This document shows, piece by piece, positions 15,947-47,166 of a DNA stretch of 52,897 bases. This stretch comes from Chiloscyllium plagiosum. Taxonomy: Eukaryota. The position numbers and the translations under genes were made by a program. How positions within the stretch are numbered: the stretch's first letter is position 1; the number at the start of each line of letters is the position of its first letter. The notes under the pieces are model-generated. The model was not told the DNA's origin and made no database searches. It saw only the letters and a program-made list of their open reading frames with translations. The stretch is from contig NC_057718.1 in the NCBI RefSeq assembly GCF_004010195.1, positions 102,634,315 through 102,687,211 of the forward strand, read 5' to 3'.

Positions 15947-15957
15947 GCTGCATTTTA

Positions 15958-18454: not shown

Positions 18455-18552
18455 GCATATAAATCCACCGTCTGGCAGGTCCGCCATTTGCCACAAAACA
18501 GAGACGTTTTCATGACAACAGGAGGTGCTGGTAATCTGCACCTTTGGAAATA
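18455..18552 (+). CDS. WDR92: WDR92 exon 7 ([33 protein letters not shown])
   Basis: ccccAG acceptor, GTGAGT donor, 98 nt. Confidence 0.96.
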
Positions 18553-21082: not shown

Positions 21083-21089
21083 TACTCTA

Positions 21090-21620: not shown

Positions 21621-22732
21621 TGGAGCCTGTAACATCAACTGTGATCAATAAAATTTGGCATTCTTTCATTTTGCACCAGTCTGAACTGGTGCAAAACAAA
21701 CCGCTTCATCAGCATGTCTCTTTTCAGCAAATCAATTCTCTCCTACCAAACAATTTATCAATATTTCGTTTAAAAATCATTTGCAAAATAGCTGATATTA
21801 TTTATTTCGTCCTCCCTTTATAGGACATGCTGTGCTGACTATTCTCTTGCTTTTTGATGAGAGTGATTTTGGAGCCCTGTACCACCAGCTAATAAGCCTT
21901 TGTTTGGGTGGATTATGTCCAATTGCGCATCTTGAGAGAACATTTTTCTTCTGATGGTGCTCCACCTGATGGTTTGAATGAGGATTGCTCAGCTGAAGTG
22001 TCAGTCTGATGGCCGTGTTTTGGTAGTGCAACGTTTGCGCTCAGTGACCCCTGCAGACTTGTATTTAAAGTGTTTAAAATGTTGGTTTATTGGGACAATT
22101 CCAGCTTTATATTCAGCTCATGGTTACAAAATTTCCAATTGAAATAGGGTGTGAAGAATTTGCACTTTTTCTTGTAAATTTATACGTAAGGTGTTAAATG
22201 TGTTCACATTCTAGGGGTGTCCAGCTTGGTTGCTATACAGTTGGGTGCTTGTAGAATGCATGATTGAACTGTATCTGATTATGCACACATATAAGCTTCC
22301 ATATAAGAACAGGAGTGCCATACATGTACACACATGTGCGCACACACGCATGTGCATGCATGTAAGCTGCTCCCTTCCCATCACATTTCCAGCTTCTACT
22401 TTTCCCTTTTCTTGAAACTCAAAACAGAAAATCCCATCTCTTTTAACCATTTGGTCTGAAGAATGGTTACAGGCTAATTCCTGTTTGTTACAAAACCTTT
22501 ACTTCCTGATCGGTGAGACATTCACTGTGACAAGAACAGCTTTTTCTTTCTCCATGTGTAAAATAATCTGTGTGCAAGCAATTTCCTTTTTTTTCTTCAC
22601 TGTTTCAGGACAGGGACCTGACATCTAAATTCTGCTGCTATCTTTACTTGGGGAAGTAAATTGTTCTTGGGTTATTATGATCTCCCATAGGGAGAGGTTG
22701 GTTTAAACCTTTTATTTTTAGCCACATTTGTA

Positions 22733-22867
22733 AATAAAGTGAATCCAAAAATATTTCTGGCATTTTGTTTTAAAGTTGAGTTTACTATTTGCTTAACATA
22801 TTTTGCACATTAGTGTGTACATTTGCATGAGAAAGTGTTACTGATAATTTGTCACCTCTCAAATAAA
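22733..22867 (+). terminator. Candidate WDR92 polyadenylation signals (AATAAA at 22733 and 22862; also 21647)
   Basis: Hexamers in AT-rich unique sequence followed by T/GT-rich tracts; which one is used is unknown. Confidence 0.35.
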
Positions 22868-25800: not shown

Positions 25801-26252
25801 GTGACAGTGCTCTGGTAAAATAGGTTCTTGTGAAGCAGTCATAGTACAAGACATAGGTAGTTATACTCCACTTCTCTTTGTACAAATAGTAGTTTCCTGG
25901 AAATTAATTAAATTATCCAGTTGAGTAAGTAACCAACAAATTCTAATTCTGGAAGTTGTTCTGTAAAACAGTCCCATCATCTTATAATCAGCGTCTGTTA
26001 CTTAAGAAACATTTACCTCAGAAATGCTAACAATGACGCAAACCATAGAACTATTTTAAACCTACAGAATGTTTAGTGAAATGAACGGAAGGAAAACACA
26101 AAATTGCTGCTTGTTTAGGCTGATACAAAATTTAACACAATTGACAAAACCTTTTGACAACATATGATTCCATTCAACAGGTTAACCTTTAACCCTGAAA
26201 TCTTTATGCAGACTATGGATTTGTGACACTTTACTGCTAATAGCAAGGCATC

Positions 26253-26392
26253 CTATATCCAATGTTTGAAAGTGAAGAATGCTTGAAGTTCTGTATCTTC
26301 AATAGATTTATCATGGATTCCTGCGTAGACTTTCATCAAAATCTCGTTCTTCATTTTCCGGTCAAGGGTGTTAATGTAATTATCGATGGAAG
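26253..26392 (-). CDS. Unnamed TPR-like gene terminal coding exon (ASIDNYINTLDRKMKNEILMKVYAGIHDKSIEDTELQAFFTFKHWI*)
   Basis: ttgcAG acceptor, phase fits, TAG at 26253-26255. Confidence 0.88.
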
Positions 26393-26743
26393 CTGCAAAG
26401 CATTGCAAATATTACGTAGAGGACACAGACTTACGGTAACAAGTTACTATTAATACAAACTGAATCCACATAAGTATGTTTTAATTTTTTGGACTTTTCT
26501 CTTAATTGTAATATGGATAAAGGTTAAACTTTAATTATTCCTGCCTGCTGATCAGGTACACAATGTTTTTCACATTTTCATATCTTAGCTTTAGTATCTT
26601 AACATGTGCTCCTCAGAACTTATATTCTGCCAAACTGTCTCAATCTAATCGTGCATGCTTAGTGGCATGAATCCATTTGCTGTGTATCATGCTTTTGATA
26701 TAACTTGGCAATAGCCATTTTATGCAGAACTCTTCCTTTTGAT

Positions 26744-27297
26744 CGGAAAATGTGTTGCTGGAAAAGTGCAGCAGGTCAGGCAGCATCCAAGGAACAGGAG
26801 AATCGACGTTTCGGGCATAAGCCCTTCTTCAGGAATGAGAAAAGTGTGTCCAGCAGGCTAAGATAAAAGGTGGGGAGGAGGGACTTTGGAAATGCGATAG
26901 GTGGAGGGAGGTCAAGGTGAGGGTGATAGGCCGGAGTGGGGTGGGAGCGGAGAGGTCAGGAAGATGATTGCAGGTTAGGAAGGCGGTGCTGAGTTTGAGG
27001 CGGTGCAACACCTTCCTAACCTGCAATCATCTTCCTGACCTCTCCGCCCCCACTCCACTCCGGCCTATCACCCTCACCTTGACCTCCCTCCACCTATCGC
27101 ATTTCCAAAGCCCCTCCCCCAAGTCCCTCCTCCCTACCTGTTATCTTAGCCTGCTGGACATACTTTCCTCATTCCTGAAGAAGGGCTTATGCCCGAAACG
27201 TTGATTCTCCTGTTCCTTGGATGCTGCCTGACCTGCTGCGCTTTTCCAGCAACACATTTTCAGCTCTGATCTCCAGCATCTGCAGCCCTCACTTTCT
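26744..27297. mobile_element. Fold-back PLE pLTR pair with two oppositely oriented hammerhead motifs
   Basis: Arms 26747-26983 and 27011-27260. Perfect 14 bp TSD ctcttccttttgat at 26730-26743 and 27298-27311. Hammerhead motifs at ~26801-26836 (-) and ~27171-27206 (+). Confidence 0.9.
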
Positions 27298-27786
27298 CTC
27301 TTCCTTTTGATGTATTGAATGATAAATGTTACTGTCTAACCCACTATTCCCATTGTGATCTTGTTTCAAGGTCTGCCAGGTGGCCCTCATGGAATGAGTT
27401 CCCTAACTGGGGCTGTTAAATCTGGCTCTAGCTGACAGATATAAACAAGAATGGTAAAGATTTGTACGTATTGTGTCTTTCACTGTGTCTCACACCTGCA
27501 AAAATAAGAAAAAAATGAAAAAGAGAAGGAAAAAAGAAATAAACAAGAACGGTAGAAAAAAAAACAAGAGTGGCAGAGGCTCAGTTCACTCTGAGAGCTG
27601 GCTCTAAGGGAACTGGATGAGTGTCATGGACTGTTCATTTGTAAGTCCAAGGGTAACTTAGTGATGGCATATTGCCCTCTCTGGAGCTATTTCTGATATG
27701 TCACTGGAACAATCTACATAATGTAGCGTTGAAGAGAATTCTGTGTAAAATGTCCCCTAGCTTTCGGAGATGCACAGATTTAATAA

Positions 27787-28011
27787 TGATTTGATGATGC
27801 CAGTGTTGAACTGGGGCGTATAAAGTTAAAAATCAGACAACATCAGGTTATAGTCCAACAGGTTTATTTGGAAGCACTAGCTTTATGTTGCTATAAATTC
27901 TGTGTCTTACAATTTTATACTCCACAACCATCTGATGAAGTAGCAGCGCTCCAAAAGCTAGTGCTTCCAAATAAACCTGTTGGACTACAACCTGGTGTTG
28001 TGTGATTTTTA
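27787..28011. mobile_element. Fold-back remnant of a second PLE family with decayed hammerhead
   Basis: Arms ~27825-27884 and ~27954-28013; ctgatgaagtagcagcgctccaaaagcta. 13 bp TSD acagatttaataa at 27774-27786 and 28012-28024. Confidence 0.8.
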
Positions 28012-28705
28012 ACAGATTTAATAAAACCTGATTGAGACAATAACGATGGCTCCTTTTATAACAGAGGATCAGGTAACAGTATAAGAGAATGCACTGCCTC
28101 TCATTAAACCCATTCTATGTATTTTTTCATAACCAAACTGCTACATTTCTTTTTATTTAATGTCATGTGGGTGTCACTGGCAAGAATCTTTAACTGTCCT
28201 TGAACTGAGTGATTTGCCAGGCCATTTCAGAGGCAACCCCATTGCAGTGGTTCGGGAGTTATATGTAGGCCAGACTGGGTCAGGATTTCCTTCCCTAAAG
28301 GACATTAATGAACTAGATAGGTTTTTACCAAAATCTGTGATGGTTTCATTACTGAGACCAGCTTTTGACTCCAGATTTTATTAAGTGAATTTAAATTTTA
28401 CCAGCCATTATCATCTCCTCCTCTACCCGACCCCCAACCCTAACAAAAAAAAACAGGATGGGTTGTCTTATCTCTGCATATCGTGCTGAAACTGCATTTT
28501 GTCAAGTATATGAGCAATGTTGAAGTAACTAGTAAATATGATACAAGTTTTTCATTTAGCAGCATCCACTGTACGTGGGCCATTATGCTACTGGGTGCTC
28601 TAGCAGAAAGGACATTCTAATGTAAAGTGACATGTCACAGTGTCCATGCTGCCAAGATGTCAATCTGTTACTAATTTCTGCTGACGCAGTAGTTCCTATA
28701 CGCAC

Positions 28706-28928
28706 CTAGTCCCATTACTCTCCCATACGCAATCAGGTTTGGCACCAGGCGCTTGTCATCGTACTTTTCATACTTCATTAACAGGCGAGCAATCTCTCCA
28801 GTAATGAAGGCATCGTCATATGTTTGTGAATTAAGGGGTTTTAAAGGAAATTTGCTGTAAACGTCCACTGCTTGCAGGGGATTGGTCTTGAGGAGAAGAT
28901 CTGCTAATTCCATGTAAGCATCATGGAC
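28706..28928 (-). CDS. Unnamed TPR-like gene exon (VHDAYMELADLLLKTNPLQAVDVYSKFP...YGRVMGL)
   Basis: ttttcAG acceptor, GTGCGT donor, 223 nt; TPR-like DAY.ELA.LL. Confidence 0.9.
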
Positions 28929-30089
28929 CTGAAAACCAGAAGGTCATTTCACTTTATTCAGTTAGATGTTTAAATCTGCATTGTATACAGACATGTCCAA
29001 TCTTTGTACTGCTTAATCTCACATTCAAATATTTTGCTGTATTGCATAAAGTTTGTGAAGTTTCAGACTAGTTGCTCCCTAATCTCACTCTACCTTAATT
29101 CAATTCCCAGGGGTTCAGGCCTGCAGTCAGAGAATATAGACTTGATTTCCACCATGGAACCATGAATTGATTTGATTTATTGTGGTCATGTGTACCTAAG
29201 TACAGTGAAAAGCTTTGTTTTGTGAGCAGTACAGGCAGATCATAACAAACAAGGACAAACAGATTATAGGATGCAGAGGTAATCATGCTCCCAGTACACT
29301 ACTTGAAATGCCAACATATCTTTGCCCTCAGCTCTATGACTTAGCTTTCAGCACTCGGTCCTTTTAAAGTGAGTGTGACTCTGTAGGAATCTCATGGCAG
29401 ATATCTCATCTCCCATTTTCAAAAAAGTGAGGATAGGAGTCAAATGAAGGCACAAAAAACAGTCAGCCTGTAAGATCCAGGGTAGTTGACTGCTTTCATG
29501 TTGGCATGAATCCAATGCATTGCAATCTCATTTAAATATTGTGGGAATTAGAAACAATAGCATCAAAAATAAAAAAAAACTTGAGCCTTGACATCCATGG
29601 TTACAGCACATATTCCAATTATCCCAAATCTCAACCCAATTAATGACCCATCACTACTACAACATTGCCTGCAATTTCATTTCAGCAAACACTTTCTAAC
29701 ACAGGGGCTTACCAAATCCATGCATATGACATGCATTCTCTCTTTACGAACTTTATCAAATAATTCCATTAGGCTATTTAGATTTAACTGCACTACACTA
29801 CAGGGTGGAATCTGAGCTAGCTGAAGCCAACAACCGTAGTCGCACACTGATTCCAGGCAGAGCAGTAAAGACATCGTATGGACACTCACAGCAAAGCAAA
29901 CTCAAAAGAGAATGAGGATCAGTGATAGACCCTACCTCTGCCCACTTAAACAAAGGTATCTCACAAGGGACTGTAGGATCAGCAGAAATAAGTGCTGGTA
30001 GGTAATGACAAACCAATATCCTGCACTGGTTGCCTATTAAACCTCCGAAAATTACATGATTGAAAATACAAAGGATTAATTTGCAGTAC

Positions 30090-30253
30090 CCCTGGTGCCA
30101 TTTTGATCACTTCATTGTAGTAATTCTGGGCCTCAGCGGATAATTCATCCAAGCGTGACAAAGCACGAGCCAGTGCTAAGCGATAGGCAAAAGAAACTGG
30201 GTTTATGGCAGGGGGCATTGGTGATGATTTACCACCCTGACCAGTACCAGTGG
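30090..30253 (-). CDS. Unnamed TPR-like gene exon (STGTGQGGKSSPMPPAINPVSFAYRLALARALSR...YYNEVIKMAPG)
   Basis: Long polypyrimidine tract plus gtAG, GTACTG donor, 164 nt; TPR-like (LALARAL...A..YY..VI.MAP). Confidence 0.88.
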
Positions 30254-30920
30254 CTACAAAAAGAAAACGAGAAAAAAGAAGTTATTTATCAGCTTGAACT
30301 TAATGCAACCTAAAGAAAAATTATTCTAAAAATATCTAATACCTTTATGGTGTCTGATTTCAATAAAAAAACTGCCAATGAAGCAATTCAAGCTTTCATT
30401 TTGAAAGAATTAAAGTCCACTCTTTTAATGAGTCAGATATAATTTATGTAACAACATTGAAAAAGAAGATTAGGTTTTTAAAAAGGAGACCGTATGATTC
30501 TCTTACTGTCACGGTGGGACTGTATAAAGGAGATCTTAACAGCGATTGACAATGGTCAGAAAGCTGTGGAAGCCAGAACAAGGCTGGTGCAGTTGTAATA
30601 TTAATAGAACCTTTGGCCTTTTTGAACAGAAACCTGTGGAATTAGCACTCTTATTTATTTTGAAATTTTAGAAATGAGAAAGTGATTTGCAATGACAGAG
30701 TAGCCATTGCAGTAAAATGGTAATGTGCAGATGTACCAGGCAACAATAGGTCACAGTACTGATATACAGGTTACACTTCATAGTGAGAGCTGTAGAACTC
30801 AAGTGACAGTACAATACAGGATTAAACAGGTGTGATTTATTATTTAACCAATTAACAATGCTCTCGGAGTGATTTGTCATTATTGTGAAACTACATATGT
30901 GCATGGAACATACTGCACAA

Positions 30921-31210
30921 CGGAACGGTGGCTCAGTGGTTAGCACTGCTGTCTCACAAGGACTCGGGTTCAATTCCATCCTTGGGTCACTGACTGTGTG
31001 GAGTTTGCACGTTCTGTCTGTGTCTGTGGGGGTTTCCTCTGGGTGCTCCAGTTTCCTCCCACAATCCAAAGATGTGCAAATTAGGTGGATTGGCCATGGG
31101 AAATGTAGGGATACAGGGATAAGGTGGGTTCAGGTGGGATGCTCGTCAGGGGGCCGGTGTGGACCCAATGGGTCAAATGACCTACTTTCACATTGTTGGG
31201 GTTCTATGAT
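30921..31210 (+). mobile_element. HE1-type SINE
   Basis: Same consensus. Confidence 0.85.
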
Positions 31211-32242
31211 CTATCAGGTTGTGTCTGATGCCTACAATCCCCACCCTTCTTTATCTAATGATGATTGTCCTGCTGTAGTTTGCAAACTTTTCTTGTTTAT
31301 TTCCTCTCATATTTATAGCATTTGCCTTGGAAACACTGTCATTCTGATCATACAAGCTGTTTTTGTGATCTGCTTTTTAAAGCAATGCATCTACTTCAAA
31401 CAAAGACTTGTCAATATTAGGATGACCAATGGAGAAACATGAGATGCCCAAAATGTCATAATTAGGATTTTAAATGTTTGGACATTTGTAGAGTTTGATA
31501 CATACCACTGTTTTAGAATATTCCTGAATCTTTCCCTAAGCAATTGCCAGAAATAGTCATTCTTACAGAAACATATCTTACGGACAATGTTTTAGACACT
31601 ACCATCACAGCTCTGGATATGTTCCACTGACAGGACAGACCAACAGCACAATGATATACAGTTGAAATGAAGTTGTCCTGGAAGCCTTTCAAATTGGCTC
31701 CAGAACCCGTGTCAAACATAGGCACAGAAGAATCCTGCTGATTACCACCTACTGCCGCTCTTCCCTCGGCTGGTGGACCAGTACCACTCCATATTGACCA
31801 CCACTTGGAGGATCGATCTGAGGGTGGCAAGGCTCCAGACTCTGGTGGGGAGACTTCAATAACCATCACCAAGAGTGGCTCGGCAGCACTACCACTTACA
31901 GCTTGTTGTATCCTAAAGAACACAGCTGCTGGACTGGCTCCGTGGCAGATTGCTGAGTGAACCAATAAGAGGACAAATGTAGTTCACCCTATCATTACCA
32001 ATCTAACTGCTGCAGGTGCACCCTGGTCGTATCAGCATTGGTAGAAGTGACCACTTCAGTCCTTCTACAGTTGGCGTCCTATCTTCATATTGATGGTGAT
32101 GTAATGTTGTGGCTGTACCGGACATTGGTAAGGCCACTTTTAGAATACCACCTTCAACTCTGGTTGCCCTTCAATAGGAAGGATGTTGTGAAACTTGAAA
32201 GAGTACAGAAAAAATTGACAAGGGTGTTACTGGGATTAGAGA

Positions 32243-32378
32243 CTGGGATTTCTGATGAAGGGCTTTTGCCCGAAACGTCGATTTTGCTGCTCGTCGGATG
32301 CTGCCTGAATTGCTGTGCTCTTCTAGCACCACTGATCCAGAATCTGGTTTCCAGCATCTGCAGTCATTGTTTTTACCC
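32243..32378 (+). mobile_element. 136 bp solo PLE pLTR end with hammerhead core, inserted in a CR1
   Basis: CTGATGA-A-GGGC-TTTT-GCCC-GAAA-CGTC at 32252-32279. 13 bp TSD ctgggattagaga at 32230-32242 and 32379-32391. Confidence 0.85.
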
Positions 32379-33659
32379 CTGGGATTAGAGAGTCTGAGCT
32401 ATAGAGAGAGGCTGAAAAGGCTAGGGCTTTTTTGGAGGCTAAGAGGTGGCCTTATAGGGGTTTATAAAATCATGAGGGGCGTGGATACGGTGAATAGTCA
32501 AGGTCTTTTTCCTAGGACAGTGGAGTCCAAAACTAGATTGCATAGGTTTAAGGTGAGAGGGGAAAGATTTTAAGGGACCTTGAGAGCAACTTTTTCATGC
32601 AGAGGATGGTGCACATATGGATTGAGCTGCTAGAGGATGTGGTGGAGGCTGGTACAATTACAAACATTTAAAAGGCATCTTATGGGTACATGAATAGGAA
32701 GGATTTAGAGGGATATGGACCAAACACAGGCAAATGTGCCTAGATCTTTTTAGATTATCTGGTGGGCATGTACAATTAGACCATGCTGTATAACTCTATG
32801 ATTGTCCACTCAATTTATGGGATAGATTTCAAACAGATCAAGCAACTCAAGACTGCATATTCATTTGGTGTCTTGGATATCAGTAACAGAGGAACAGTAT
32901 CCAACCACAATCTCAAACCAATTGGCGTAGCACAATCCCCACTCGGTCATTACCATCAAGCCAGGGTCAACTCGATTCAACAAATAGTGCAGGAGGACGT
33001 GTAAGGAGCATCACTGGCCACACTAAAGAATGACATATCAATCTGGTGAAGCTACAAAACAGGACTACCTGCATGTCAAGCAGTGCACACAACATGGGAT
33101 CGACAGAGCTAAGTGATCCCACAATCAATGAATTAGATCGAAGCTCGGCAGTCTTGTGACATCGAGTCAAGAATGATGGTGGACAATTAAGCCACTCACT
33201 GGAGAAGGAAGCTCCACAAATATCCTCTATGATGGAAGTGCCCAGCATAACAGTACAAATAATAAGGCTGAAGCATCTGCAGCAATTTTCAACCAGAAGT
33301 GCCAAGAGGATGATCCATTTCCTGTGGGCCCTAGCATTACAAATACAAGGCTTCAGACAATTCAATTTACTCCACGTGATATCAAATAATGATTGAAGGC
33401 ACTGAATACTTCAATGGTTGTGGGTCTGACAACATTCCAGCAAGGGTACTGAAGACTGGTGCTCCAGAACTAATCAGTTATAGCCAAGCTGTTCCAGTAC
33501 AGCTATAACACTGGCATATACCTAACAAAGTGGAAAATTGCCCAGATAATATCCTATACATAAAAAGCAGGTCAAATCCTAGCCTAATGCAGTTTCATCC
33601 ATCTCCATCGTCAGCAAAGTTATGAAAGATGTGGTCTTCAGTGCTAATAATTTCTGGCA

Positions 33660-33958
33660 GAGCGGCACGGTGGCTCAGTGGTTAGCACTGCTGCCTCTCA
33701 GCACCAGGGTCCCAGGTTCGATTCCAGCCTCGGGCGACTGTGTGTGTGGAGTTTGCACATTATCCCAGTGTCTGCGTGGGTTTTCTCTCTGGGTTCTCTG
33801 GTTTCCCCCCACAGTCCAAAGATGTGCAGCTCAGGTGAATGAGCTGTGCTAAATTGTCCATAATGTTAGGTGCATTAGTCAGAGGGGGGTGTGCGTCTGG
33901 GCGGGTCAGTGTGGACTTGTTGGGCCGAAGGACCTGTTTCCACATCGTAGAGAATCTA
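33660..33958 (+). mobile_element. HE1-type SINE
   Basis: Same consensus; possible TSD ctaataatt. Confidence 0.85.
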
Positions 33959-35818
33959 ATAATTGGCACTTACTCGCAATGACCTGCTCACTGACACTCA
34001 GTTTGGGTTCTGCTAGACCCACTCAGTTCCTCACCTCATTATAGCCTTAGTTCAAACACATTCAAAAGAGCTGTAGTCAAGGGGGAGAAGAGAGTTCCCT
34101 TGACATCAAGGCAGCAGCATTTGACTCATCGTGGCATCAAGGAGTCTTAGCAAAACTGGAGTCAAAGGGAAAACTATCTGCTGGTTGGATTCATACTTGG
34201 CTCAAAGGAAGACAGCTATGGTTGTTGGAGGTCAATCATCTCAGCACAGGGCAACTCTGCAGCAGTTGCTCGGGGTAGTGTCCTGTACCCATCCTTCTTC
34301 AGCTGTTTCATCAAGAATTTCTCTGCATCATAAGCTTTAGAAGTAGAAATGTTTACTAGTGTTCGCACAGTGTTCAGCACCATTTGTAACACATCAGATA
34401 CTGAAGTATGCTGTGTTGAAATGCAATAAGACCTGGAAACATCCAGGGTTGTACTGATAAATGGCAAGAAATATTCATGCCATACAAAGCAATAGAGAGT
34501 CCAACCTCTCCACATGGCATTCAGTACCATTACAGCTGCTGAATCCCCCATTCTTAATATCCTGGGGAGAGCTGACCACTGGCTAGAAACTGAACTAGAT
34601 TAGCCTTATAAAGTACTTAGGCCTCAGGAGCAGGTCAAAGGCTGGAGATTCTGCAGTGAGTAACTCACCTCTTGATTCCCCAGTATCTGTTCATCATCTA
34701 CAAGGCACAAATCAGGAGTGTAGTGGAATTCTCTCCAATTTTCTGATGAATGCATCTCCAATAGCACTTAAGAAGCCAACATTATCCAGGACAAAGCAGA
34801 CGACTTGATCAGTACTCCATCCATAATCTTCAACATTCACTTCCTTCACAGTAGTAACAAAAATCTCACAGCTCCTTAGACAGCACCATGACCTCCATCA
34901 CTGTGTAGGGCAGCAGATTCATGGAAATAACGCCAGCAGGAAATTCCCCTCTTAACCACATTCCATCCAGGCTTTGGACTGTATCACTGTTCTTTAACAA
35001 ATGCTGGGTCAAAATCCTGGAACTCTCACCCAACAGCACTGTGGCTGTTCCTACACCATGTAGCCTGCACAAGTCAAGAAAGCAGCTCACCACCACTTTC
35101 TCGAGGATAATAAATGCTGATCTAATGAGTGCCACCCACATCCTGGGATGAATAACAAATAGATGTGCTCTTGGATTGGCAAAGTGGTGATGACAGCCTT
35201 CATTGGACTGGTTTAGGTAAGACAGTGGAAGCCAAGAGGAAATTTGATAGAGCTGTACAAAATCATGAAGTATTTTGGTAAAGTGTGGAAGGAGGAATTG
35301 TCACCAGAAGGGTAATCAATCCGATGGCAAGATTTAAAATGAACAGAAAAAAATCCAGAGGTTACATGAGGGCAAAGAATTTTTTTCAGCTACTTATTCT
35401 GATCTGGGATTCACTGACTGAAAGGGTGGTGAAATAATTCAACATATATTTGAAGGGGAAAAAATGCCAGTGATGCAAGGAAGGAGCTGGGGAGTGGACT
35501 ACTGGATGTTTGGCAGAGTCCCTTTTTTTCTGCTGAATCATTTTTAGCTTGGATTTTGATATCCATGACTTTAGAATCTCCAAAACCAATCCATATTTAA
35601 CCAAAGATTCAAACTTTTCCCATTGCCTGAGATCTGAAAATTAAAAGCACTACATGATAAGAAGTGCACACATCAAATATGCCTGTCTGGTCAGAGCAGG
35701 AAATATATTTTCTTTTCAACATGAGCTCTGCCAGGCAATACAAGAGAACATATCTGGTTTGTAATTGAGATGACAGAGATAGCTACGGGTATGAGACTTT
35801 TAGAGCTCTGCTTCTTAC

Positions 35819-35898
35819 AGGTGCCGGGGACTGCATCTTTTCCAGCTGGTTTTTCAGGTTGTCTTGTAGGAGTCATAGGCTTGGCAGCAGCACGTCCC
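35819..35898 (-). CDS. Unnamed TPR-like gene exon (GRAAAKPMTPTRQPEKPAGKDAVPGT)
   Basis: ttttccaccAG acceptor, GTAAGA donor, 80 nt. It is needed to reconcile phase 2 to phase 1. Confidence 0.8.
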
Positions 35899-36167
35899 CT
35901 GGTGGAAAATGCAAAATGCTCTGATTACTGTCACGTCAACACTACATGCAACATTTATTTCACAATCATAGTAAAACAAAATACACACAAGCTTTTAAAA
36001 AATCTCAAATCAACCTTTTTCATATTTCCATAAGCGACTCTCATCTTGCGGAATTCCTGAGTAAATAATGGGGTTGGTGAATAAAAACCTTTAGCTAATC
36101 TCAGGAAAATAAAATTCAAGATGAGGTAGATGGAGAGTAGCGTGGAGCATAAACTCTAGCAAAGATT

Positions 36168-36295
36168 TACCTGAGGAAGGGGCAGCACTCCAAAAGCTCA
36201 TGATTTCAAATAAACCTGGTGTACCATAGCCAGGTGTCATGTGGCTTCTGACTTTGCCCAACTCAGTCCAACACCGGCACCTCCACATCATGGCT
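36168..36295 (+). mobile_element. PLE family-2 pLTR remnant
   Basis: ctgaggaaggggcagcactccaaaagctc...aaataaacctg, similar to 27932-28011. Confidence 0.6.
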
Positions 36296-36726
36296 TGGAA
36301 CATTACAGTACAGTACAGGCCCTTCAGCCCTTGATGTTGTGCCGACCTGTGAAACCAATCTGAAGCCTACCTAACCTACACTATTCCATTTTCGTCCATA
36401 TGTCTTTGCAATGATCATTTAAATACCCTTAAAGTTGGCGAGTCTACTACTGTTGCAGGCAGTGCGTTCCACGCCCCACTACTGAGTACAGAAACAACTC
36501 TGACATCTGTCATATATCTATCACCCCTCAATTTAAAGCCATGCCCCCTCATGCTAGCTTAATTGAGCAGACTGGCCAGTTTCTCCTCAGAAGTGACTAC
36601 CACTCCCAGTTGGGTAACATTAAAATGTTGGGAAAGTACAAAATCAGGATGTATTGATGAACCTTTATGAAATGCTGGTTCAGCCTCTACTGAAGCACTG
36701 TGTCTAATTCTGTGCACCAGAAAAAG

Positions 36727-37352
36727 AATCATAGAGTCAGAGATGTACAGAACGGAAACAGACCCTTCAGTCCAACCCATCCATGCTGACCAGATATCCC
36801 ATCCCAATCTACACCCACCTGCCAGCACCCGGCCCATATCCCTCCAAACCCTTCCTATTCGTATACTCATCCAAATGCCTTTTAAATGTTGCAATTGTAC
36901 CAGCCTCTACCACCTCCTCTGGTAGCTCATTCCATACACGTACCACCCCGTGTGTGTGGAGTGCAAGTTCATAGCTCCTTGAAAGTGGAGTCGCAGGTAG
37001 ATAGGATAGTGAAGGCGGCGTTTGGTATGCTTTCCTTTACTGGCCAGAGTATTGAGTCCTGGAGTTGGGAGGTCATGTTGTGGCTGTACAGGACATTAGA
37101 TAGGCCACTGTTGAATATTGCATGCAATTCTGGTCTCCTTCCTATCGGAAAGATGTAGTGAAATCTGAAAGGGTTCAGAAAAGATTTACAAGAATGTTGC
37201 CAGAGTTGGAGGATTTGAGCTATAGGGAGAGGCTGAATAGGCTGGGGCTGTTTTCACTGGAGCGTCGGAGGTTGAGGGGTGACCTTATAGAGGTTTACAA
37301 AATAATGAGGGGCATGGTTAGGATAAATAGACAAAGTCTTTTCCCTGGGGTG
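36727..37352. mobile_element. CR1 copy with 5' inversion
   Basis: 3' end on - (36727-36950) abuts the upstream ORF2 segment on + (36953-37352); compared with the colinear copy at 47938-49947. Confidence 0.8.
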
Positions 37353-38298
37353 AATTGATGAGAATGAAATCTCCCACCGCTGGAACCAGTTATGTTAAAC
37401 ACACTGGAGAAGATGAGACTGTTCTCCTCTCAGTGAGGAGATTTGATCAAGGTATTAAGCTTTAGCAAATGGGTTGAAAACCAGAGGCCAATGACTGGTG
37501 AATGGGAAAGAACAAAAGATGACTTGAGGAAAATACATTTTCAATCAGTGAATGTTAGGATCTAGAATATACTGTCTGAGCAGGTGGTTGAGGTAAATTC
37601 ACTTATGAAATTCAGAAGGGAACTGGATAAGCATTTGAACAAAAAAAACAGTTTTCAGAAATGTGGGGAAAGGGTGTAAGAATGAGAATAGCTATATTAC
37701 TCTTACACTGAGTCATAGTTTTATGCTAAGGGATAGCAGATTTAAAACAGAGGTGGTAAATTACTTCTCCTGAAGAGTTATGAATCTGTGGAATTTATTA
37801 CCTCACAGTGCAGTGGATGCTGGAACACTGAATAAATTTAAGGAGGAGGTGGAATGATATTTAATTTGCTGTGGTTAAAGGGTTATAGAGGGCAGGAAAG
37901 TGGAGCTGAAGCTGAGATGTGATCAGCCGTGATCATACTAATTAGTTGAACAGGCTCAAGTTCTTATGTAAAGGAAAGGAAATTCATATCTGAATGTGAC
38001 GAATGAGTTTAAAGTGTTTTGTTGATTCTTCGTGTAGTCAGTATAAATTGGAAACACTAAATCCATTTGGTTACTCCTCCTTCAAGCAATGCTAGCAATG
38101 TGCTTCGGTGATTGAGGTTAGGGCCATTTCATTATTAACTCCTAAATAGATTAATTATTGGAAAATCTGTGCTAATTTTTAAATCATGTTTATATTATTT
38201 TTGCATATGTTTTGGCAGGAAGAAGCAATAGTTCCCTTTAAATAGTATTGTATTTGTAAGATTTTAAAGTTAGATCAAATGATACAGAAATTAGTTAC

Positions 38299-38554
38299 CT
38301 GCCCCCTCTCGCAGCTGCAGCTGCACCACGGGGTGCGTTGGCAGCTTTTTGAGGAGAGGCTACTGCAGGTCCTTTTGTGGCAGTGGCCCTGCCCCTGGCT
38401 GCTCCACCTTTTGGAGGAGCAGGAGCTGCTGATGCTGCACCTTTCAGTGCCTGTTGCTGCTGCTGCTGTTGCTGTTGCTGGTGCTGGTGCTGCTGCTGCT
38501 GCTGCTGAGCTTTGAGGGACTCGTCCATTTTCCAATCCCGCCACCATTTCTGTT
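38299..38554 (-). CDS. Unnamed TPR-like gene exon with polyQ and Ala/Gly/Lys/Pro-rich linker
   Basis: ttatttcAG acceptor, GTAACT donor, 256 nt, phase 1 to 2 consistent with neighbours. Confidence 0.85.
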
Positions 38555-38943
38555 CTGAAATAAGAGAGAAATAAAAATACCCAGATCTATGAAAGATGAT
38601 AACACTACTCGACATACAATCTATCATTTCCTAGGCTTCTCATTCTTTTCAATCAGAGAAACTGTAGAACACATAGATCTATGCATTAATTTATAAGAAC
38701 ATAAAAAAATGGAGGTGGCCAGTTGGCCCCTTAAGCCTCAATGAAATCATGGCTGGTCTTTTACTTCAATACAGTTATCCTGTACCATACATCAATGTGC
38801 ACAAACCTCAGTTTCTGTCTTGAACACAGTTAATGATTGAGCCTACACAATCCTCTGAAGAACAGAATTCCAAAGATTCACCACCTACTGAATGAAGAAA
38901 TTCCTCATCTGTCTTAAATGGCCTGCCCCTTATTCTGAGTTGA

Positions 38944-39670
38944 AGAGTGTGGTGCTGGAAAAGCACAGCCTGTCAGGCAGCACCTAAGAAGCAGGAGAAT
39001 CGATATTTCAGGCATATGCCCTTCTTCAGGAATGAGGCTTGTGAGCAAAGGGGGCTGAGAGATAAATGGGAAGAGGGTGGGCTGGGGGGGAAAAGGCAGC
39101 TGGGAATGCGATAGCTAGATGAAGGTGGGGGAGGTGATAGATCAGAGAGGAGGGTGGAGCAGATAGGTGGGAAGGAAAATGGACAGGTGGGACAGTTCAA
39201 GAGGGTGATGCCGAGTTGGAAGGTTGGGAGTGGGATCAAGTGGCCGGGGTGGGGTTGGGGAAAGTGGTGAAATCCATATTGATCCCATGTGGTTGGAGAC
39301 TCCCAAGGCGGAAGATGAGGCGTTCTTCCTCCAGGCGTCGGGTGGTAAGGGTTTGGCGCTGGAGGAAGTTCAGGATCTGCATGTCCTTGGCGGAGTGGGA
39401 GGGGCAGTTAAAGTGTTCAGCCATAGAGTGGTGGGGTTGGTTAGTGCGGGTGTCCCAGAGATGGGCTCTGAAACAATCCACAAGTTAGCGTCCTGTCTCC
39501 CCAATGTGAAGGAGACCACATCGGGTTCAACAGATGCAGTAGATGACATGGGTGTAAGTACAGGTCAATCTCTGCTGGATGTGGAAGGATCCTTTGGGGC
39601 CTTGGATGGAGGTGAGGGGGACGTGTGGGTGCAGGTTTTGCACTCCTTGCAATGGCAGGAAAAGGTACCG
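38944..39670 (-). mobile_element. Penelope-like element 3' fragment (GIY-YIG and pLTR with degenerate hammerhead)
   Basis: ORF track shows HVIYCIC, AEHFNCPSHS...LIFRLGSLQPHGIN, homologous to 1709-2486. Hammerhead-like motif ~38998-39033. Confidence 0.88.
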
Positions 39671-40065
39671 AGAGAGAACAGTGAGTTGGTTGTTCCTGTC
39701 AGTTTGTGTCATTGTCCTCCATTTTCAGTGGCAGGGCACAGAGGCAAGTCCCATACAGAGGCAAGTCCCATATGCATTGAATTCTGTGCTCATGGAGATC
39801 AGGAATTGAACCTGAATTGATAGCTTTAACCAGATTCACAATACCCAATCTACAGAACTGAGTTAACAGTGCCCCCTATCTCCCCCGCTACTTTCAGTAT
39901 AGCAACTTTAAATAATTGAAGGTGTTGTTGTGGAATTTGCAGAGTAGGCAATGAAGAGCTATTTAATGCTAAAGTTACTCAGCATTTTTCAACTCCAACA
40001 CAGACAATTCGCATAGGTAGTATGACTGGAAGTTATGTATTTGAGCTCCCGTACTCAGATTTATG

Positions 40066-40290
40066 GGAATTGGTTTAGCTCAGTTGGCTGGATTGTTGGT
40101 TTATAGAGCAGTGTGATGTGAACAGCATGGGTTCAATTCCCCTCACTGGTTTGAGACCACCATGAGGGACGTTCCTTCTCAGCCTCGTCCCTTGGCTGAT
40201 GTCTGGTGGCCCTCAGGTTAAATCACCACCAGTCACTTTTCTCTAATGAGAGCAGCCACTATGGTCTGGTAAGACGATGGCGACACAACA
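40066..40290 (+). mobile_element. Second tRNA-derived SINE family (another copy ~17283-17465 on -)
   Basis: A-box tagctcagttgg, B-box ggttcaattcc; 13 bp TSD actcagatttatg at 40053-40065 and 40291-40303. Confidence 0.8.
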
Positions 40291-40603
40291 ACTCAGATTT
40301 ATGTAGAAAGCCTATAGTATGCATAGGTTGCCGCTTGAGTACAATACCAAGGGATGCTGCATCCATTGCTGGAGTTCATTCTTGGGTGAAAATTTAAAAT
40401 GAGGCATATCTCATTCAGATTTCCTTAACAGATGCTATGTTACTAATGGAAGGAACGGAGAGGAGTTCTCTTGGCAACTTTGCCATTAATTATCCTTCAA
40501 TTGACCCCATCAAAAAAACAAATGAATCACTCATTTACTTCATTGCTTCCTAGGAACCTTGAGGGGAGTAAACTAGCTGCCTTAAAATAATAAATGCGCT
40601 TTT

Positions 40604-43600
40604 TTAAAGAATATATTTTTATTGAAAAAAATAGATTTTTAAAAAGTATTCCAACAAAACAAAACAAAACAATACAAAGAAAAAGGCCTTCTCTGCATCT
40701 AGAGAAATCACCAATCCCTGTATTGACTGTTGTTGACATGCTTGAATTACATTATTGGAGGATCTGCAGTCCTTTACGAAGGCTGTCTGGTCCTCTTTAA
40801 TAATAGGAAGTAACACAGTCTCCAGCCTTAATACAAGAGTCTTTAAAATCCTCTAAGTCCACATTTAAGAGTGAGATGGGTCTGTACGAAGCACAGTCCT
40901 CCGGGACCTTCCCTTTCTTAAGAATAAGCAAAATATTGACTTCTCTTACAGATGCAAGAGATGATCACGGCTGTATAGTCATTAAACATATTGAGCATCG
41001 GGCCTGATACTATGTTTATAAATTCCTTATAGAATTCACTGGGAAGTCCATCAGAACCAGACGCCTTCCCACTCTGAAGCTGCTTCACAGCCTCCTGCAC
41101 CTCTTGCTCTGATAAGGGGGCATTGAGAAAGGACTCTTGTCAGGGGTCACGCCCGAGAGCTCCAGATCCTTATAAAAGGATTCCATTTTGGCCCGTCCCT
41201 CCTTACAATCCTCAGATTGGAATAATTCAGAGTAAAATCTCAGGAATGCCGCATTAATCTTTTTGGAATCACATGTTAGGTTCCCAGACCCTTCCCTATT
41301 TGCTGTAATGGCTTGAGGGGCGCTCCTTTTCCTGGCGAGATACGCTAGGTACTTGCCAGGTCTGTCACCATGCTCATATAACCTCTGTCTTGCAAAAGTA
41401 GGCTCCTTCTTGCTGTCTCCATGAGCACAGAATTCAATGCAGACTGCAGTGCCGTAATCCTCTGTAGCTTGACCAACGAGGCCCTGTCAAAGTAAGCCTG
41501 CTCGGCTGCCTTCAACCGTGCTTCGAGTTGTTGCTGCTCGCCCTTCTGCCACTTCCTACAGGCAGAGTAGGAAATAACTAACCCCCTGGCATAAACTTTG
41601 GCAGTTTCTCAAAGGACGGACAGGCTACTAACCAAGCCTGAGTTATTATCTCGGAACGCCTGAAATTCCCTCGAGAAATACTCCACAAGCCTATTATTCT
41701 TAAGGATAAAGGGATCCATTTGACAGTGCCTCAGGCCCACTATAGCATCCTTAGTCTTAACCAACAGGTACACTGGAGCATGATTGGAGATGGTAATATT
41801 ACCAATCGCACAAGATGCCACCAAGCCCAGGGGTCAGAAAAATAAATCAATCCTGGTGTGACATCTGTGTGGATTGGAAAACAAAAAGTTAAATCCCTGC
41901 CTGTAGAGTGGAGACGCCTCCAGACGTCCACCAACCCTAACTCCACACACATATCCACATAGTTTTTACAGAGGGTATCGAGGGGCCTTTGGTCAGCCTG
42001 TCTACGGTGGGATCCATGAGACAGTTAAAATCTCCCCCTGTAATAATATGCTGGGACTCGAGACTGATCAGTTTAGAAAACGAATCTATCAAAAATGGAT
42101 GAGCTGGAGGGCAATAACCATTTAAAACTCCATATTCTTCTCCATTTTTCAGGGCTTTGAGAATTACAAAGCTCCTGTGTGTGTGTTTAACATATTTTAG
42201 TAACTTAAATGGGAGATCCCTCCTAACCAACACAGCCACTCCCTTACTTCTGGTATTAAAAGTTGAAAAGTAAACCCGATCAAAGCCATTCTGCGGTAGT
42301 TTCAAATTCCCCCTATCATCCAAGTGTGTCTCCTGTAACAAAGCAATATCCACCTTCTTTCTAAGACTCAAAAGTACGTTCTTCCTCTTAAACAGTGAGT
42401 GGCTCTTCTTGATATTCCAGGTACACCACTTAATCAAGTCATTAGCCAAAGCCTTCTGCAGTAACATTTAAATTCCAGAGAGGAGGAACTTGAACCACAA
42501 ATCGCTGAGCCTTCGTGTCACATAATCCATCAAATATAAAAACAACAAACTAAAACCACTACAGTTGACAAACCTACAAAGCTTTCAAAGATTGTACACA
42601 ACAAGAACCAAAAGAACAGACCAACACAAAGCACCAACAGCGCTGAATAGGGGAACTCACCTCCTGCCCAAAGGGGACAACTACTCATCCCAAACTGCCC
42701 GTAATTAGGCATCTAACCATCCCAACCATTTTCCCTCCTCCTAGCTAGAGCTGTACCACAAACACAAGCAGAAAAGGAAGTAAATACAACATGGAATAGC
42801 AATATGAATAAAGAAAAAAAGAAAAAAGGGGTAAATACCCCAACCATCCTTTGGTATAACTTAGAAATTGAAAGTACACATCTCAACTGCCGCCAAACAT
42901 AGGAAAAGAAAGATCCAACCTGACTTGCTTTGTTTTTTAAAAAAAAGACATACCCAAACAACATGTCTACTTGCACATACTAAATCGTTCTGATTAGATT
43001 AATTTGTCCACCAAGTCTCTTGCCTTCTCGGACGTGTCAACGAGATGTACGGATCCATCTAGATTAGATTAGATTAGATTACAGTGTGGAAACAGGCCCT
43101 TCGGCCCAACAAGTCCACACCGACCCGCCGAAGCGAAACCCACCCCATACCCCCACATTTACCCCTTACCTAACACTACGGGCAATTTAGTATGGCTAAT
43201 TCACCTGATCCTGCACATCTTTGGACTGTGGGAGGAAACCGGAGCACCCGGAGGAAACCCACGCAGACACGGGGAGAACGTGCAAACTCCACACAGTCAG
43301 TCGCCTGAGGCGGGAATTGAACCCGGGTCTCTGGCGCTGTGAGGCAGCAGTGCTAACCACTGTGCCATCGTGCCGCCCATCTAAGGTGATCCGAAGCACT
43401 GCCAGATACCTCAGAGTGTACTGGATCCCAAGCTCCCTCAGTCTTCTCTTGACACCGTCATAGGAGTTTTGTTTCTGGATCACCACCGCTGAGAGGTCCT
43501 GGAAGAACATGATCTTAGAGCCCTCGTAAAGAAGGGCCTTCGGATCCTTCCCCTGGATTCTGGAAACTTCCACAACTCTCTCCTTATCTCTAAAGTGATG

Positions 43601-44296
43601 AAACTGCACCAGGAGAGGACGAGGATGTTGACCCAGACCTGACCTCCATGCCGTGACTCGGTGAACCCTCTCAATCTTCAAGCCTCTCACGCCAGCCTCC
43701 AAGTTAAGGAATTTCAGCAACCAGTCCTCAATAAGTTCCACCAGCCACTCACCTTCCTGACCCTCCGGCAGACCGACAATCCTAATATTTCTTCTGCCCC
43801 TGTTCTCAACGCCATCATGCAAACTACGGACCTGCCTCCCCAGGGCTTGGATCCTATCCTTGGAGGAACTGGCATCAGCTTCCACCACTGTGACCCTCTC
43901 CTAACTCATCCGCCCTTTTTTCCTAGGTCTCCCAGCTGCTGTTTATGCTTCTACAGCATGATAGAGGAGAAGCTGGTCCCGATCTCTATCTGCTTCCCCA
44001 ACATAGAGAGATTTTGTGAGCTCCTTCACCAGGGCCTGGTAGGAAATAGAGTCCGAGGATCCTGCAGGCTGAGCCGTGGGCCGCCTCAGACGCTCCACCT
44101 CCCTTCTTCGGCATCTCTGGACGGCAAAAACGCAGATAAGTTAATTTTTCACAGTCTCCTGGGACTCTGACCTTTCCAGAGTCCCAGGATAATGCAATGG
44201 TCCGGGTTGGGAAGGTTAGAAGTTCGTTCTGCTTGTGATGCAGTGTGGAGCTCTGCAATGCGCTCTTCCTAAGTCACCGCCATCTTGGATCCCCCC
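40604..44296 (-). mobile_element. L1-clade LINE with both ends and an internal deletion of most of RT
   Basis: 5' end ggggggatccAAGATGGCGG. ORF1 (ENRGRRNIRIVGLPEG, KIERVHR), APE (TWNI..., ALLQETHL, GGDFN), and RT up to ISLDAEKAF, then 3'UTR, AATAAA and A-tail. TSD ataaatgc(g/a)ctttt at 40590-40603 and 44297-44310. Confidence 0.92.
43062..43376 (-). mobile_element. Young HE1-type SINE inserted in L1 ORF1
   Basis: CpGs retained, (AATCT)n tail, TSD ccatcta at 43055-43061 and 43377-43383. Confidence 0.9.
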
Positions 44297-44439
44297 ATAA
44301 ATGCACTTTTAAGGGAAACCCATGCACTTACTTTTAGAGGTATAAGTTCTGGTTCCTGCTTTCTTACTTCACTGGGCTCACAGTGTATGTTTTTCCCATT
44401 ATTTAAAAACAGATGGGTGTGCAGAACCAGTTCACTTAC

Positions 44440-44638
44440 TAGTCAGTTCCACTGGTGGTGTTCCAACGACTGGTTTGTTTTCCAGGGTGATGCTGGCTCG
44501 AAAACAAAGGCAGGCATCTTCAAGGAGAACTTTTTTATCTTTTGTGGGCTCACTGTCATATTCAGCCATGAATGCCAAGCCAAGCATATACAGAGCATTA
44601 CCGTTGCATGGTGTTGTTTCAACTCTTAATTGGCACAC
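44440..44638 (-). CDS. Unnamed TPR-like gene exon (VCQLRVETTPCNGNALYMLGLAFMAEYD...DACLCFRASITLENKP...)
   Basis: cttttcgtAG acceptor, GTAAGT donor, 199 nt. P..ALY.LG.A / A...F..SI.LE pattern resembles a TPR. Confidence 0.88.
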
Positions 44639-44729
44639 CTACGAAAAGAGGGATTGATTTGTCATTGAGGAAAAATGCCAGCAACATCACAAACTTAAAA
44701 AACAGCTGAGTGGTGAGGCTGATGTAACT

Positions 44730-46050
44730 ATTTAAGACCACAAGAAATAGGAACAGAAGGCAGCCGCTTGGTTTTTAGAGTCTGCTGTGCCATTCAATAG
44801 GATCATGGCTGATCCAATATTCCTCAGGTTCACTTTCCCGCCTTTTCCCCACATCCCTTGATTTCTCTCCTGAGCAAGAATGCATCCCAGTCTTAAATAT
44901 ACAGAGTGACTCTGCCTCCACCCCACAGCTCTCTGTGGTAAGGAATTCCAAAGACTCAACTCCCTGAACGAAGAAATTCCTCCTCATCTCAGTATGAAAT
45001 TGGCTTCCCTTTATTGAGGCTATATCGTCTGGTCCTAGACTCTCCCATGAGGGGGAACATCCTCTCAGCATTTACCCTGTCAAGCCCCTTAGGAATCTAA
45101 TAAGATTTACTGAAATTACCTTTCACTCTTCGAAACTCCAATGAGACCATGATGCTATTGTTTCTAATTTTTGAGGTAACAACCATTATATGGTCATGTC
45201 CTGAAACGTGTTTTATTGAATCATGCAGCTTTTGTTTGCTGTGGCTGCAGTACATACGTTTGCTTCCTCCAGGCCATTCACATGTTTTGCTAACATTTGC
45301 AATCTCAACACTGATCCCTGTGTCAACCTGAAAAATAACCCCTTATGACCATTCACTGCTTCCTGCCCCTTAGCTAATTTTCTATCCATACCATTATACT
45401 ACCCCAAACACCAATGGGTCTTATGAATTAACCTCTTGTGAGGTCCCTTGTCAAATGCCCTCTTGAAGTCCAAATACAACACACACACCGGTTCCCCTCT
45501 ACCAACTCTGGGTGGGACATCCTAAAAAAAAACTCAAATAAATTAAGCGTCGAAGGCTGAGGGGTGACCTTATAGAAGTTTACAAAATCATGAGGGGCAT
45601 GGATAGGATAAATAGACAAAGTATTTTCCCTGGGGTCGGGGAGTCCAGAACTAGAGGACATAGGTTTAGGGTGGGAGGGGAAAGATAAAAGAGACCTAAG
45701 GGGCAACCTTTTCATGCAGAGGGTGGTACGTGTATGGAATGAGCTGCCAGAGGATATGGTGGAGGCTGGTACAATTGCAACATTTAAAAGTCATCTGGAT
45801 GGGTATATGAATAGGAAGGGTTTGGAGCGATATGGGCTGGGTGCTGGCAGGTGGGACTAGATTGGGTTGGGATATCCGGTCAGCATAGATGGGTTGTACC
45901 GAAGGGTCTGTTTTCATGCTGTACATCTCTATGACTCTATAAATTAGTCAGACACAATTTCCCTTTCATGGTGCCATGTCAACTCAGCATGATTAGATAA
46001 TGATTTTCCAAATGTGCTGCTATTGCTTCCTTGATAATTGATTTCACAGC
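44730..46050 (-). mobile_element. Decayed CR1 with a younger + strand CR1 3' piece (45546-45938) inserted
   Basis: 8 bp TSD ataaatta at 45538-45545 and 45939-45946; host motif NLFEFF. Confidence 0.8.
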
Positions 46051-46937
46051 TCATCACCGGGATCTCAAAGGTGGACGCTTCAAGAAGCAACTTCAGTCTT
46101 TAGTGGCAACTCATCCACTCGTATAATAGACGGTTCAGGTTCGCAATATTATAATGTTAGTTGAGGAAACTGACTTTCAACAATAGGAAATTGCTAGTAA
46201 AATAATCATTACAACTAAGCATCACACCAGAATGGAAACATCAGATGGGTAATGGCTTTAGAAAGCAATATTTCAATCTAATGTCACAAATGCCGAACAA
46301 TGGAATAATGCAATATAAATTTGCCTTCCTCACAAAGCCAGTTCCAGATCTCAGGGAATGTGGTTGTCAAGGAAAAGATGATAATAGTATATTCAGTTCT
46401 TTGCAAGTAGTTGAGAAAATTGAACAGAAGTCACACTATAGAGGCCATTCTGCACTGTCACTGAATATTATTGACAGAGGCCAGGAAGTAGATTGCCTGT
46501 TCATTTCAGTTCAGTTCAGTTCAGTTAAGAGAGAGATAAATGGGGATAGGTTGAAAACAGAAACAACAGATTTTTGAAGGGAAATCTATAATGGATGCAT
46601 ACACGATAATCTTAAGAGTGTCCATTTAGAGTCTCTTTTGAAAACAGAAATTATTAAATCTTACAGTTATATTGAGAATGACAATGCGTCTACAATGTAG
46701 GAATAGATCAAGATTAACAAATTAAATTATTTATGTAAGCAGAAAGGTACAGTAGCAGGAAAATAATGTCTTTGTTATTACTTTTACATCTCTAAAACAT
46801 AAAAGATTAATGATGAAATCACAAATGAGTACAATAGAAAGAAAACACTAAGATCGAATGATTAATCGGAGTGCCACTTAATCAATATTTGATTGTCAAT
46901 ATCCAACACTGAATAACAGTAATTCTTGGTTTCATAC

Positions 46938-47166
46938 CGTTCGTTGCATCTCTTGAAGTTCTGCATTGGTTTGAAGGTTGGTATTTTTTATCAGTGCAGA
47001 CAAAGCCTGGCATCTTTTAGAAACCAAATCCTCATTTACCAATGTCTGATGGGCAAGTAATTCTAAAAGGGTAAAATGAGCCTCAAGCAGTAGCAATTCC
47101 AATTCCTGACTTAAAATTCCACGGTACGGATATTTGCACAGGCTTCGGGAAGTTAAATCGACAGCA
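46938..47166 (-). CDS. Unnamed TPR-like gene, most 5' exon found (AVDLTSRSLCKYPYRG...QEMQRT)
   Basis: tgtcAG acceptor, GTATGA donor, 229 nt open frame. Ends in phase 0, matching the next exon. Not in the ORF track because it has no start codon. Confidence 0.8.

Follow-up and report, generated by a model that had tools for sequence, protein, structure and literature searches.

The gene converging on WDR92 in Chiloscyllium plagiosum belongs to an ancient animal family of TPR proteins with a putative RING-derived module

What kind of protein is encoded next to WDR92 in the genome of the shark Chiloscyllium plagiosum, and does this neighbor point to its function? The window, as we call the whole stretch of 52,897 nucleotides analyzed here (contig NC_057718.1, positions 102,634,315 to 102,687,211 of the forward strand), contains a TPR-protein gene on the minus strand. 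An initial annotation of this DNA had read the gene as seven GT-AG exons in one 429-residue frame and had suggested a co-chaperone scaffold of the R2TP type, acting in axonemal dynein preassembly. The exons and their frame stand; the frame is not the whole gene. The window holds the 3′ seven exons, coding for the C-terminal ~40% of a ~1,100-residue protein, and the rest lies upstream, beyond position 52897. The gene is single-copy and ancient among animals, from sponges to frogs. We lean towards a cytosolic TRAF6-like/U-box-like E3 ligase or ubiquitin adaptor, a role that we infer at every functional step. The informative domains sit outside the window, which corrects the earlier view of this protein.

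The exon model could be rebuilt from the sequence. AG and GT sites surround all seven exons, the phases agree, and the joined exons (1,291 nt) give 429 residues with one stop, which is terminal; among 20,000 random joins of pieces of the same lengths from the same span, none had one stop or fewer. Searches by tblastn with shark and ray relatives match all seven exons in order. Over its whole length, the joined frame aligns with residues 541–957 of the Scyliorhinus protein (74% identity) and 472–893 of that of Mustelus (76%), and homologues support all six exon junctions. Spanning evidence of transcript type, which had been proposed as a check, was found among the matches listed for two junctions, 5-6 and 6-7, the other four having homologue support: in run X1 of a related organism, a contig of 1,432 nt (record 6; presumably RNA) carries exons 5, 6, and 7 consecutively, with both introns absent, and runs on to 25573, just past the ATTAAA at 25595. 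This comparison covered four of the six junctions, two lying wholly or partly outside the compared stretch, and repeats dominated its joint table; about 2% of the single-cell reads of X10 were read, and these are mostly repeats. Because the first exon of the window is internal (phase 2) and nothing in the window convincingly matches the N-terminal ~670 residues of full-length relatives (best E 0.36), the gene is incomplete here.

Exon 1 of the window (46938..47166, minus strand as are all the others; phase 2 to 0) encodes part of a helical solenoid, equivalent to residues 669–745 of the Mobula orthologue, and exon 2 (44440..44638, 199 nt) a TPR-like helix pair (Mobula 745–813). Exon 3 (38299..38554, 256 nt) contains the end of a long helix, poly-Gln, and a basic, disordered linker rich in Ala, Gly, Pro, and Arg; exon 4 (35819..35898, 80 nt) is linker. 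Exon 5 (30090..30253, 164 nt) joins the linker end to a conserved TPR repeat, and exon 6 (28706..28928, 223 nt) a TPR repeat to the start of a conserved C-terminal helical cap, which ends in the coding part of the last exon (26253..26392, with a TAG stop). The probable 3′ untranslated region (UTR) occupies 25425..26252 on the same strand: contigs extend to 25573 in run X1 and to 25425 in run X9, ATTAAA signals stand at 25595 and 25353, and contigs cannot set the true 3′ end of the gene. A CAG-type coding repeat at 38455–38507 gives a Gln/His run of 21 residues, longer than in Scyliorhinus or Mustelus. An open frame at 34216–34599 was rejected as part of the gene, as no relative matches there. 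Pfam gives no match on five single exons, and NCBIfam gives TPR and Rad18 matches below threshold and none above it.

The architecture of the whole protein is predicted from an AlphaFold2 model of the Mobula orthologue (143-row alignment), which is compact, with a predicted local distance difference test (pLDDT) of 87 and a predicted template-modeling score (pTM) of 0.81. Two β-sandwiches (1–190) precede a small α/β module (200–297), a helical solenoid (350–842), a disordered linker (849–937), and a helical C-terminal block (947–1096); the window encodes residues 669–1100. The TPR-like blocks around a low-complexity linker described initially are thus recovered, both as a TPR superhelix in the model and as Pfam TPR_11/TPR_17 matches above cut-off in several full-length relatives. 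Fold searches with the whole model give only generic TPR and cadherin matches. The C-terminal TPR and cap, the latter with a tentative fold from the whole-chain model, form the most conserved region (mean share of the top residue 0.69–0.72). The small module, at 0.67, is conserved to the same degree as the TPR parts (0.61–0.72). The linker varies in sequence and length (92–256 aa); its net charge is +8 to +32 in the ten members examined (+13 in the window), and RG dipeptides occur in nine of them, the snail having none.

The sandwiches correspond to two stretches above the PF12733 cut-off in full-length relatives (up to 106 bits versus 24.2), encoded outside the window. They are 32–39% identical to repeats of giant proteins, which by their termini would be bacterial surface proteins, and by fold they resemble, among others, bacterial galactosidases and glycan-binding proteins (Z about 8 or less). 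None of 52 domains has the two classical cadherin calcium motifs. A tree of the cadherin-like domains has weak support (0.72, 0.17) and does not demonstrate bacterial transfer; a bacterial origin and carbohydrate binding were proposed by Anantharaman and Aravind, in the accessible part of PMC2824669. PF12733 is shared with CPED1 (C7orf58); unlike the family, CPED1 belongs to a secreted PC-esterase family with an ATP-grasp domain. Neither ATP-grasp nor PC-esterase has a Pfam match in the scanned relatives, and seven full-length members lack a hydrophobic leader, a signal peptide, and a membrane helix (maximal 19-residue hydropathy 1.59). The protein would therefore be soluble and cytosolic, to judge from its sequence.

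It is the small middle module that best indicates what the protein may do. In a 306-residue model of one relative (P0189, pLDDT 93), residues 192–297 match the RING and first zinc finger (ZF1) of TRAF6 best among 48,161 chains, with Z 11.9 and a root-mean-square deviation of 1.9 Å over 100 residues. The next fold matches, at Z 8–11, are TRAF5, LNX2, RING1B, and U-boxes (Ufd2 8.9, UBE4A 8.6, CHIP 8.4). Sequence comparison agrees: phmmer of P0189 against the PDB returns TRAF6 chains in all six matches (best E 9e-4), the family profile matches TRAF6 with E 3e-6, and all ten listed look-alikes of the module according to a language model fall in RING/U-box clusters (top 0.95).

The zinc ligands of this module were counted on 129 sequences (14 of 143 were dropped, the region being missing). 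Eight RING ligands are present in P0130, five in P0061, four in Oscarella and P0084, and at most three in the other 125; all vertebrates are in this last class, with Ser, Thr, and Asp in place of the ligands. P0130 passes the Pfam threshold for zf-C3HC4 (22.4 versus 21) and matches RING1B, BMI1, RAD18, and TRAF6. Among the members it is the most distant; its C3HC4 RING is intact, several Cys/His fingers come next, and its linker has six RGG repeats. The module thus appears to descend from a C3HC4 RING, the change having presumably gone, in a tree rooted by choice on P0130, from RING to U-box-like. Ligands may have been lost more than once, since P0061 keeps five of them inside the bilaterian clade.

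The contact residues of the putative E2 face are mostly conserved. With the roles of residues in TRAF6 and U-boxes taken from the accessible parts of PMC5702613 and PMC13290226, Val or Ile stands at the place of TRAF6 I72 in 120 of 126 sequences, Leu at that of L74 in 125 of 126, the loop-2 Pro in 125 of 128, and Lys or Arg at the Arg-link position in 82 of 128. The module of the family is like TRAF6 in its build (RING, linker helix, and ZF1), fold, and sequence, including the strand before the RING, in the I72/L74 equivalents, in a Pro-x-Asp loop, and in an often basic Arg-link position. It is unlike TRAF6 in having lost most RING zinc ligands and the Arg of ZF1, and in keeping a single finger in vertebrates. 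Around it, a TPR solenoid replaces the coiled coil and MATH domain, and a β-sandwich pair is added at the N-terminus; no MATH domain appears in 27 Pfam scans, and the model has no strand of three or more residues after residue 284. With the U-box ligases (CHIP/STUB1, UBE4A/B, Ufd2) the family shares a zinc-free RING fold with Ser, Thr, or Asp at ligand positions (Z 8–9), and with CHIP the joining of such a domain to TPRs. It differs from them in that its domain comes from a C3HC4 RING of its own, is followed by a TRAF-type finger, lies N-terminal to the TPRs, and has no Pfam U-box match, and in that, unlike those of CHIP, its TPRs lack the clamp for Hsp70/90. By build the protein is like a TRAF6-type or U-box ligase; it is a member of neither the TRAF, the CHIP, nor the RPAP3/SPAG1 families. 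In the reading that we favor, the RING-derived, U-box-like domain would resemble TRAF6 and U-boxes in binding a ubiquitin-charged E2 (UBE2N or UBE2D type) and would probably do so as a dimer. Holding a substrate or docking the protein would fall to the β-sandwich pair and to the TPR solenoid and cap, the latter two being the part encoded in the window.

Several observations weigh against a ligase, and some of them suit a scaffold whose RING-derived domain no longer transfers ubiquitin but binds it, dimerizes, or is structural, while the TPR solenoid assembles a complex, on the model of the U-box-like domain of IFT172 or of the silent partner in a RING heterodimer. We consider this a possible, if rather doubtful, alternative. 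An intact C2HC finger is kept by 97 of 129 sequences; it is broken in the other 32, with losses in the molluscs, the annelid, the nemerteans, the tunicates, and the sponge examined. The linchpin position has Glu, Asp, or Gly and no Arg; in TRAF6 itself, too, this Arg is missing and the eighth ligand is Asp, a residue found there in 46 of the 129 family members as well, which argues against a pseudo-ligase. At the position of the ZF1 Arg, whose loss abolishes TRAF6 activity according to the accessible part of PMC5702613, 127 sequences have Ser (79), Gly (18), or Thr (11) among others, with Glu adjacent. Leu replaces the aromatic residue of the U-box helix in 109 of 128 sequences, where TRAF6 has Ser; together with the loop-1 Ile/Leu and the loop-2 Pro, this aromatic forms the E2-binding triad of U-boxes (PMC13290226, accessible part). 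Pfam U-box matches none of 27 relatives scanned, weak zf-Nse and zf-C3HC4 matches appearing instead. In the compact full-length model (pTM 0.81) the E2 face may be covered; a face of this type lies beneath a TPR in IFT172 (PMC13290226, same part). Moreover, the N-terminal module of this shark is assumed from its close relatives, its own exons being outside the window. The lost RING ligands and the C-terminal location of the highest conservation also fit a pseudo-ligase, and IFT172 is its precedent: in the available text of PMC13290226, a zinc-free RING-like domain of uncertain ligase activity stands beside TPRs at its C-terminus. This likeness does not extend to homology beyond weak TPR similarity, and the order and context of the domains differ. 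Against a silent module, the E2-contact Ile/Val, Leu, and Pro are near-invariant from sponge to frog.

The dynein-preassembly idea started from the neighbor, which works with TPR co-chaperones such as RPAP3 and SPAG1. WDR92 is thought to bind the RPAP3_C domain (PMC6727741, accessible part). The TPR fold is shared with RPAP3 and SPAG1, with a generic match to RPAP3 TPR2 (Z 10.9, rank 26). In contrast to these proteins, the family has RING-derived and cadherin-like domains, no RPAP3_C (none of 27 relatives, Pfam at E up to 0.1 or 1), and no carboxylate clamp, which is defined as binding the EEVD of Hsp70/90 in the accessible part of PMC13153604. None of the six TPR A-helices read in register in 143 sequences shows the clamp pattern of five residues (Lys, Asn, Asn, Lys, Arg); at 50%, no K-x3-R pair occurs, and the cap holds one weak K/R-x3-N pair. 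Because the TPRs lack the Hsp70/90 clamp and the RPAP3_C domain is missing, an R2TP-type co-chaperone is not supported, and a TRAF6-like RING–zinc-finger module in the part then unseen points elsewhere. The wider proposal of a TPR co-chaperone or scaffold working with WDR92 in dynein preassembly or another motile-cilia process is also very unlikely in our view, a ciliary role of another kind being possible. In its favor are the adjacency, the same block being indirectly indicated in a teleost as well, the combination of TPRs with a U-box-like domain in IFT172, and the fact that motile cilia occur in all the animals named as carriers, no nematode or arthropod being listed by searches limited by words. 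However, amniotes keep WDR92 (the human protein is PDB 3I2N) and motile cilia, yet none is among the matches listed; no alga or protist occurs in any list of these word-limited searches; the block includes PNO1, PPP3R1, and C1D as well (PMC5501828, accessible part); and the two genes converge and therefore have no common promoter. The least likely proposal is that RNA, or a ribonucleoprotein, attaches to the basic RG/RGG-rich linker and the TPR groove and is tagged by the RING-derived module, in quality control or antiviral defense, loosely like IFIT or SKI3. The charge and RG dipeptides of the linker and conserved Arg/His on the inner TPR helices suit this. On the other side, the linker is inconstant in sequence and length and has no RG in the snail, and the IFIT2, SKI3, and CTR9 fold matches are generic, no better than those of designed repeats. 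A bolder form of the ligase reading, improbable though slightly less so than the ciliary one, is that of a cytosolic sensor-ligase, general among animals and discarded by amniotes: the cadherin-like pair, bacterially derived in this view and akin to domains that occur joined to glycoside hydrolases and surface proteins, would sense a glycan that is foreign or misplaced in the cytosol. In response the TRAF6-like module, having become a zinc-free U-box independently of the known ones, would build K63 chains.

The range of the family bears on all of these readings. Three word-seeded searches gave 22, 29, and 150 matches. Among fishes, the named carriers are sharks, rays, a chimaera, coelacanth, sturgeon, gar, bowfin, and many teleosts; among amphibians, all three orders (25 rows); and among other animals, amphioxus, tunicates, a crinoid, molluscs (including two land snails), nemerteans, an annelid, and the sponge Oscarella. 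The uncharacterized relatives suggested initially in fishes and invertebrates were thus recovered, and no human orthologue is among the matches listed, in keeping with the initial failure to match the protein to a named human gene. Orthologues are called “uncharacterized,” “hypothetical,” or after a domain, except for three teleost models (PNO1, “target of EGR1,” and “membrane protein”), two of which thus carry unrelated names besides the Notothenia one discussed below. What looks like a UBQLN/CUE fusion in P0020 is an artifact of tandem repeats. Trees of 62 and 40 sequences, made without the linker and gappy columns, largely follow the species tree, and the window groups with Mustelus and Scyliorhinus. 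No cnidarian, arthropod, nematode, or non-animal is among the matches, the word-limited searches being too narrow to call absence; in an exhaustive profile search, 132 of 150 rows are cadherin-like repeat proteins, and members below 460 bits (e.g., non-animal ones) are not visible.

A possible loss in mammals had been suggested; the loss appears to extend beyond mammals to amniotes as a whole. A newt query was chosen since an amniote orthologue should rank among its top rows, and no amniote occurs among the matches listed (best 120 of 150; lengths 583–1,855 searched). The species was read by eye for 118 of the 120 rows, and one of the other two groups with teleosts. Two shorter fragments that fall near tetrapods weigh against a firm claim. 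P0164 is sister to amphibians (support 0.98 in one tree, 58 in the other); in one of the trees P0183 lies within the tetrapod clade (97), and in the other it branches at the base of the jawed vertebrates. The two fragments meet where window exons 1 and 2 join and have equal scores against sturgeon and amphibians; they would fit one split lungfish-like gene, an amniote source being conceivable. The gene appears to be lost in amniotes, with none in reptiles, birds, or mammals among the matches listed.

The converging neighbor is indeed WDR92: its exon 1 matches PDB 3I2N (E 7e-30) on the opposite strand. It occupies 2685..23287 on the plus strand, with the start at 2685, the stop at 20476, and a separate 3′ UTR exon from about 21822. 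The main 3′ contigs end at 23089–23287 for WDR92 and at 25425–25573 for the TPR gene, leaving a gap of about 2 kb that no piece among the matches listed bridges. The WDR92 3′ UTR has an apparent intron, as contigs of three runs break off at about 20487–20490, a dozen bases past the stop codon, and start again at about 21822, where sites of the AG/GT type are present. AATAAA occurs at 22733 and 22862, and the 22408–23034 bin contains single-cell reads with poly(A). A GC-rich 43-bp tandem repeat (3.8 copies, 2499–2661) lies directly upstream of the start codon. The Notothenia model P0273, named PNO1 in its source, follows the family through the penultimate exon and then has an unrelated tail. 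This tail is presumably PNO1-like; neither a PDB search nor the window confirmed it. If this is right, the order of the gene, WDR92 (opposite), and PNO1 is common to shark and teleost. In human and mouse the order is PPP3R1, PNO1, WDR92, C1D (printed “CD1”), and ETAA1, no other gene being named in the accessible part of PMC5501828. The adjacency to WDR92 is an old conserved block, not a demonstrated partnership, and does not point to function.

Self-repeats make up ~19% of the window and include a ~340-bp SINE-like family of about seven copies. The frame at 1700–2242 encodes a GIY-YIG endonuclease (Pfam E 5e-6) and belongs to a Penelope-like element; a second copy lies at about 38856–39690. 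Intron 2 carries on the minus strand (40500–43900) a fragmented L1/Tx1-like element with an ORF1-like piece (weak Transposase_22) and an endonuclease (Exo_endo_phos, E 1e-10), and LINE reverse-transcriptase fragments are found at 48351–49950 (RVT_1, E 3e-5).

No functional study of this gene was found in the literature searched; subscription papers and bioRxiv supplements were outside this search and may mention it. It is partly foreshadowed in one supplement from 2010 (PMC2824669, accessible part), with the N-terminal architecture of five invertebrate proteins of 1,083–1,269 aa: two of Branchiostoma, LOC580673 of Strongylocentrotus (labeled CadL+CadL+ring+cart), and one each of Lottia and Capitella. 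By size, taxa, and architecture, this cluster is the present family; unlike the description given here, the accessible part of the supplement gives no vertebrate, TPR, or function for it.

Since the gene is present, conserved and in single copy, in Xenopus, teleosts, amphioxus, and Ciona, it is testable at once. If the absence in amniotes holds, it would be a clean gene loss at the amniote stem. Should the sensor-ligase be real, a pathway of innate immunity or quality control hidden from the biology of mouse and human would operate in fishes, amphibians, and most invertebrates. One orthologous family with intact, half, and zinc-free U-box-like RINGs also offers a natural series for asking how a U-box may originate and whether activity is retained.

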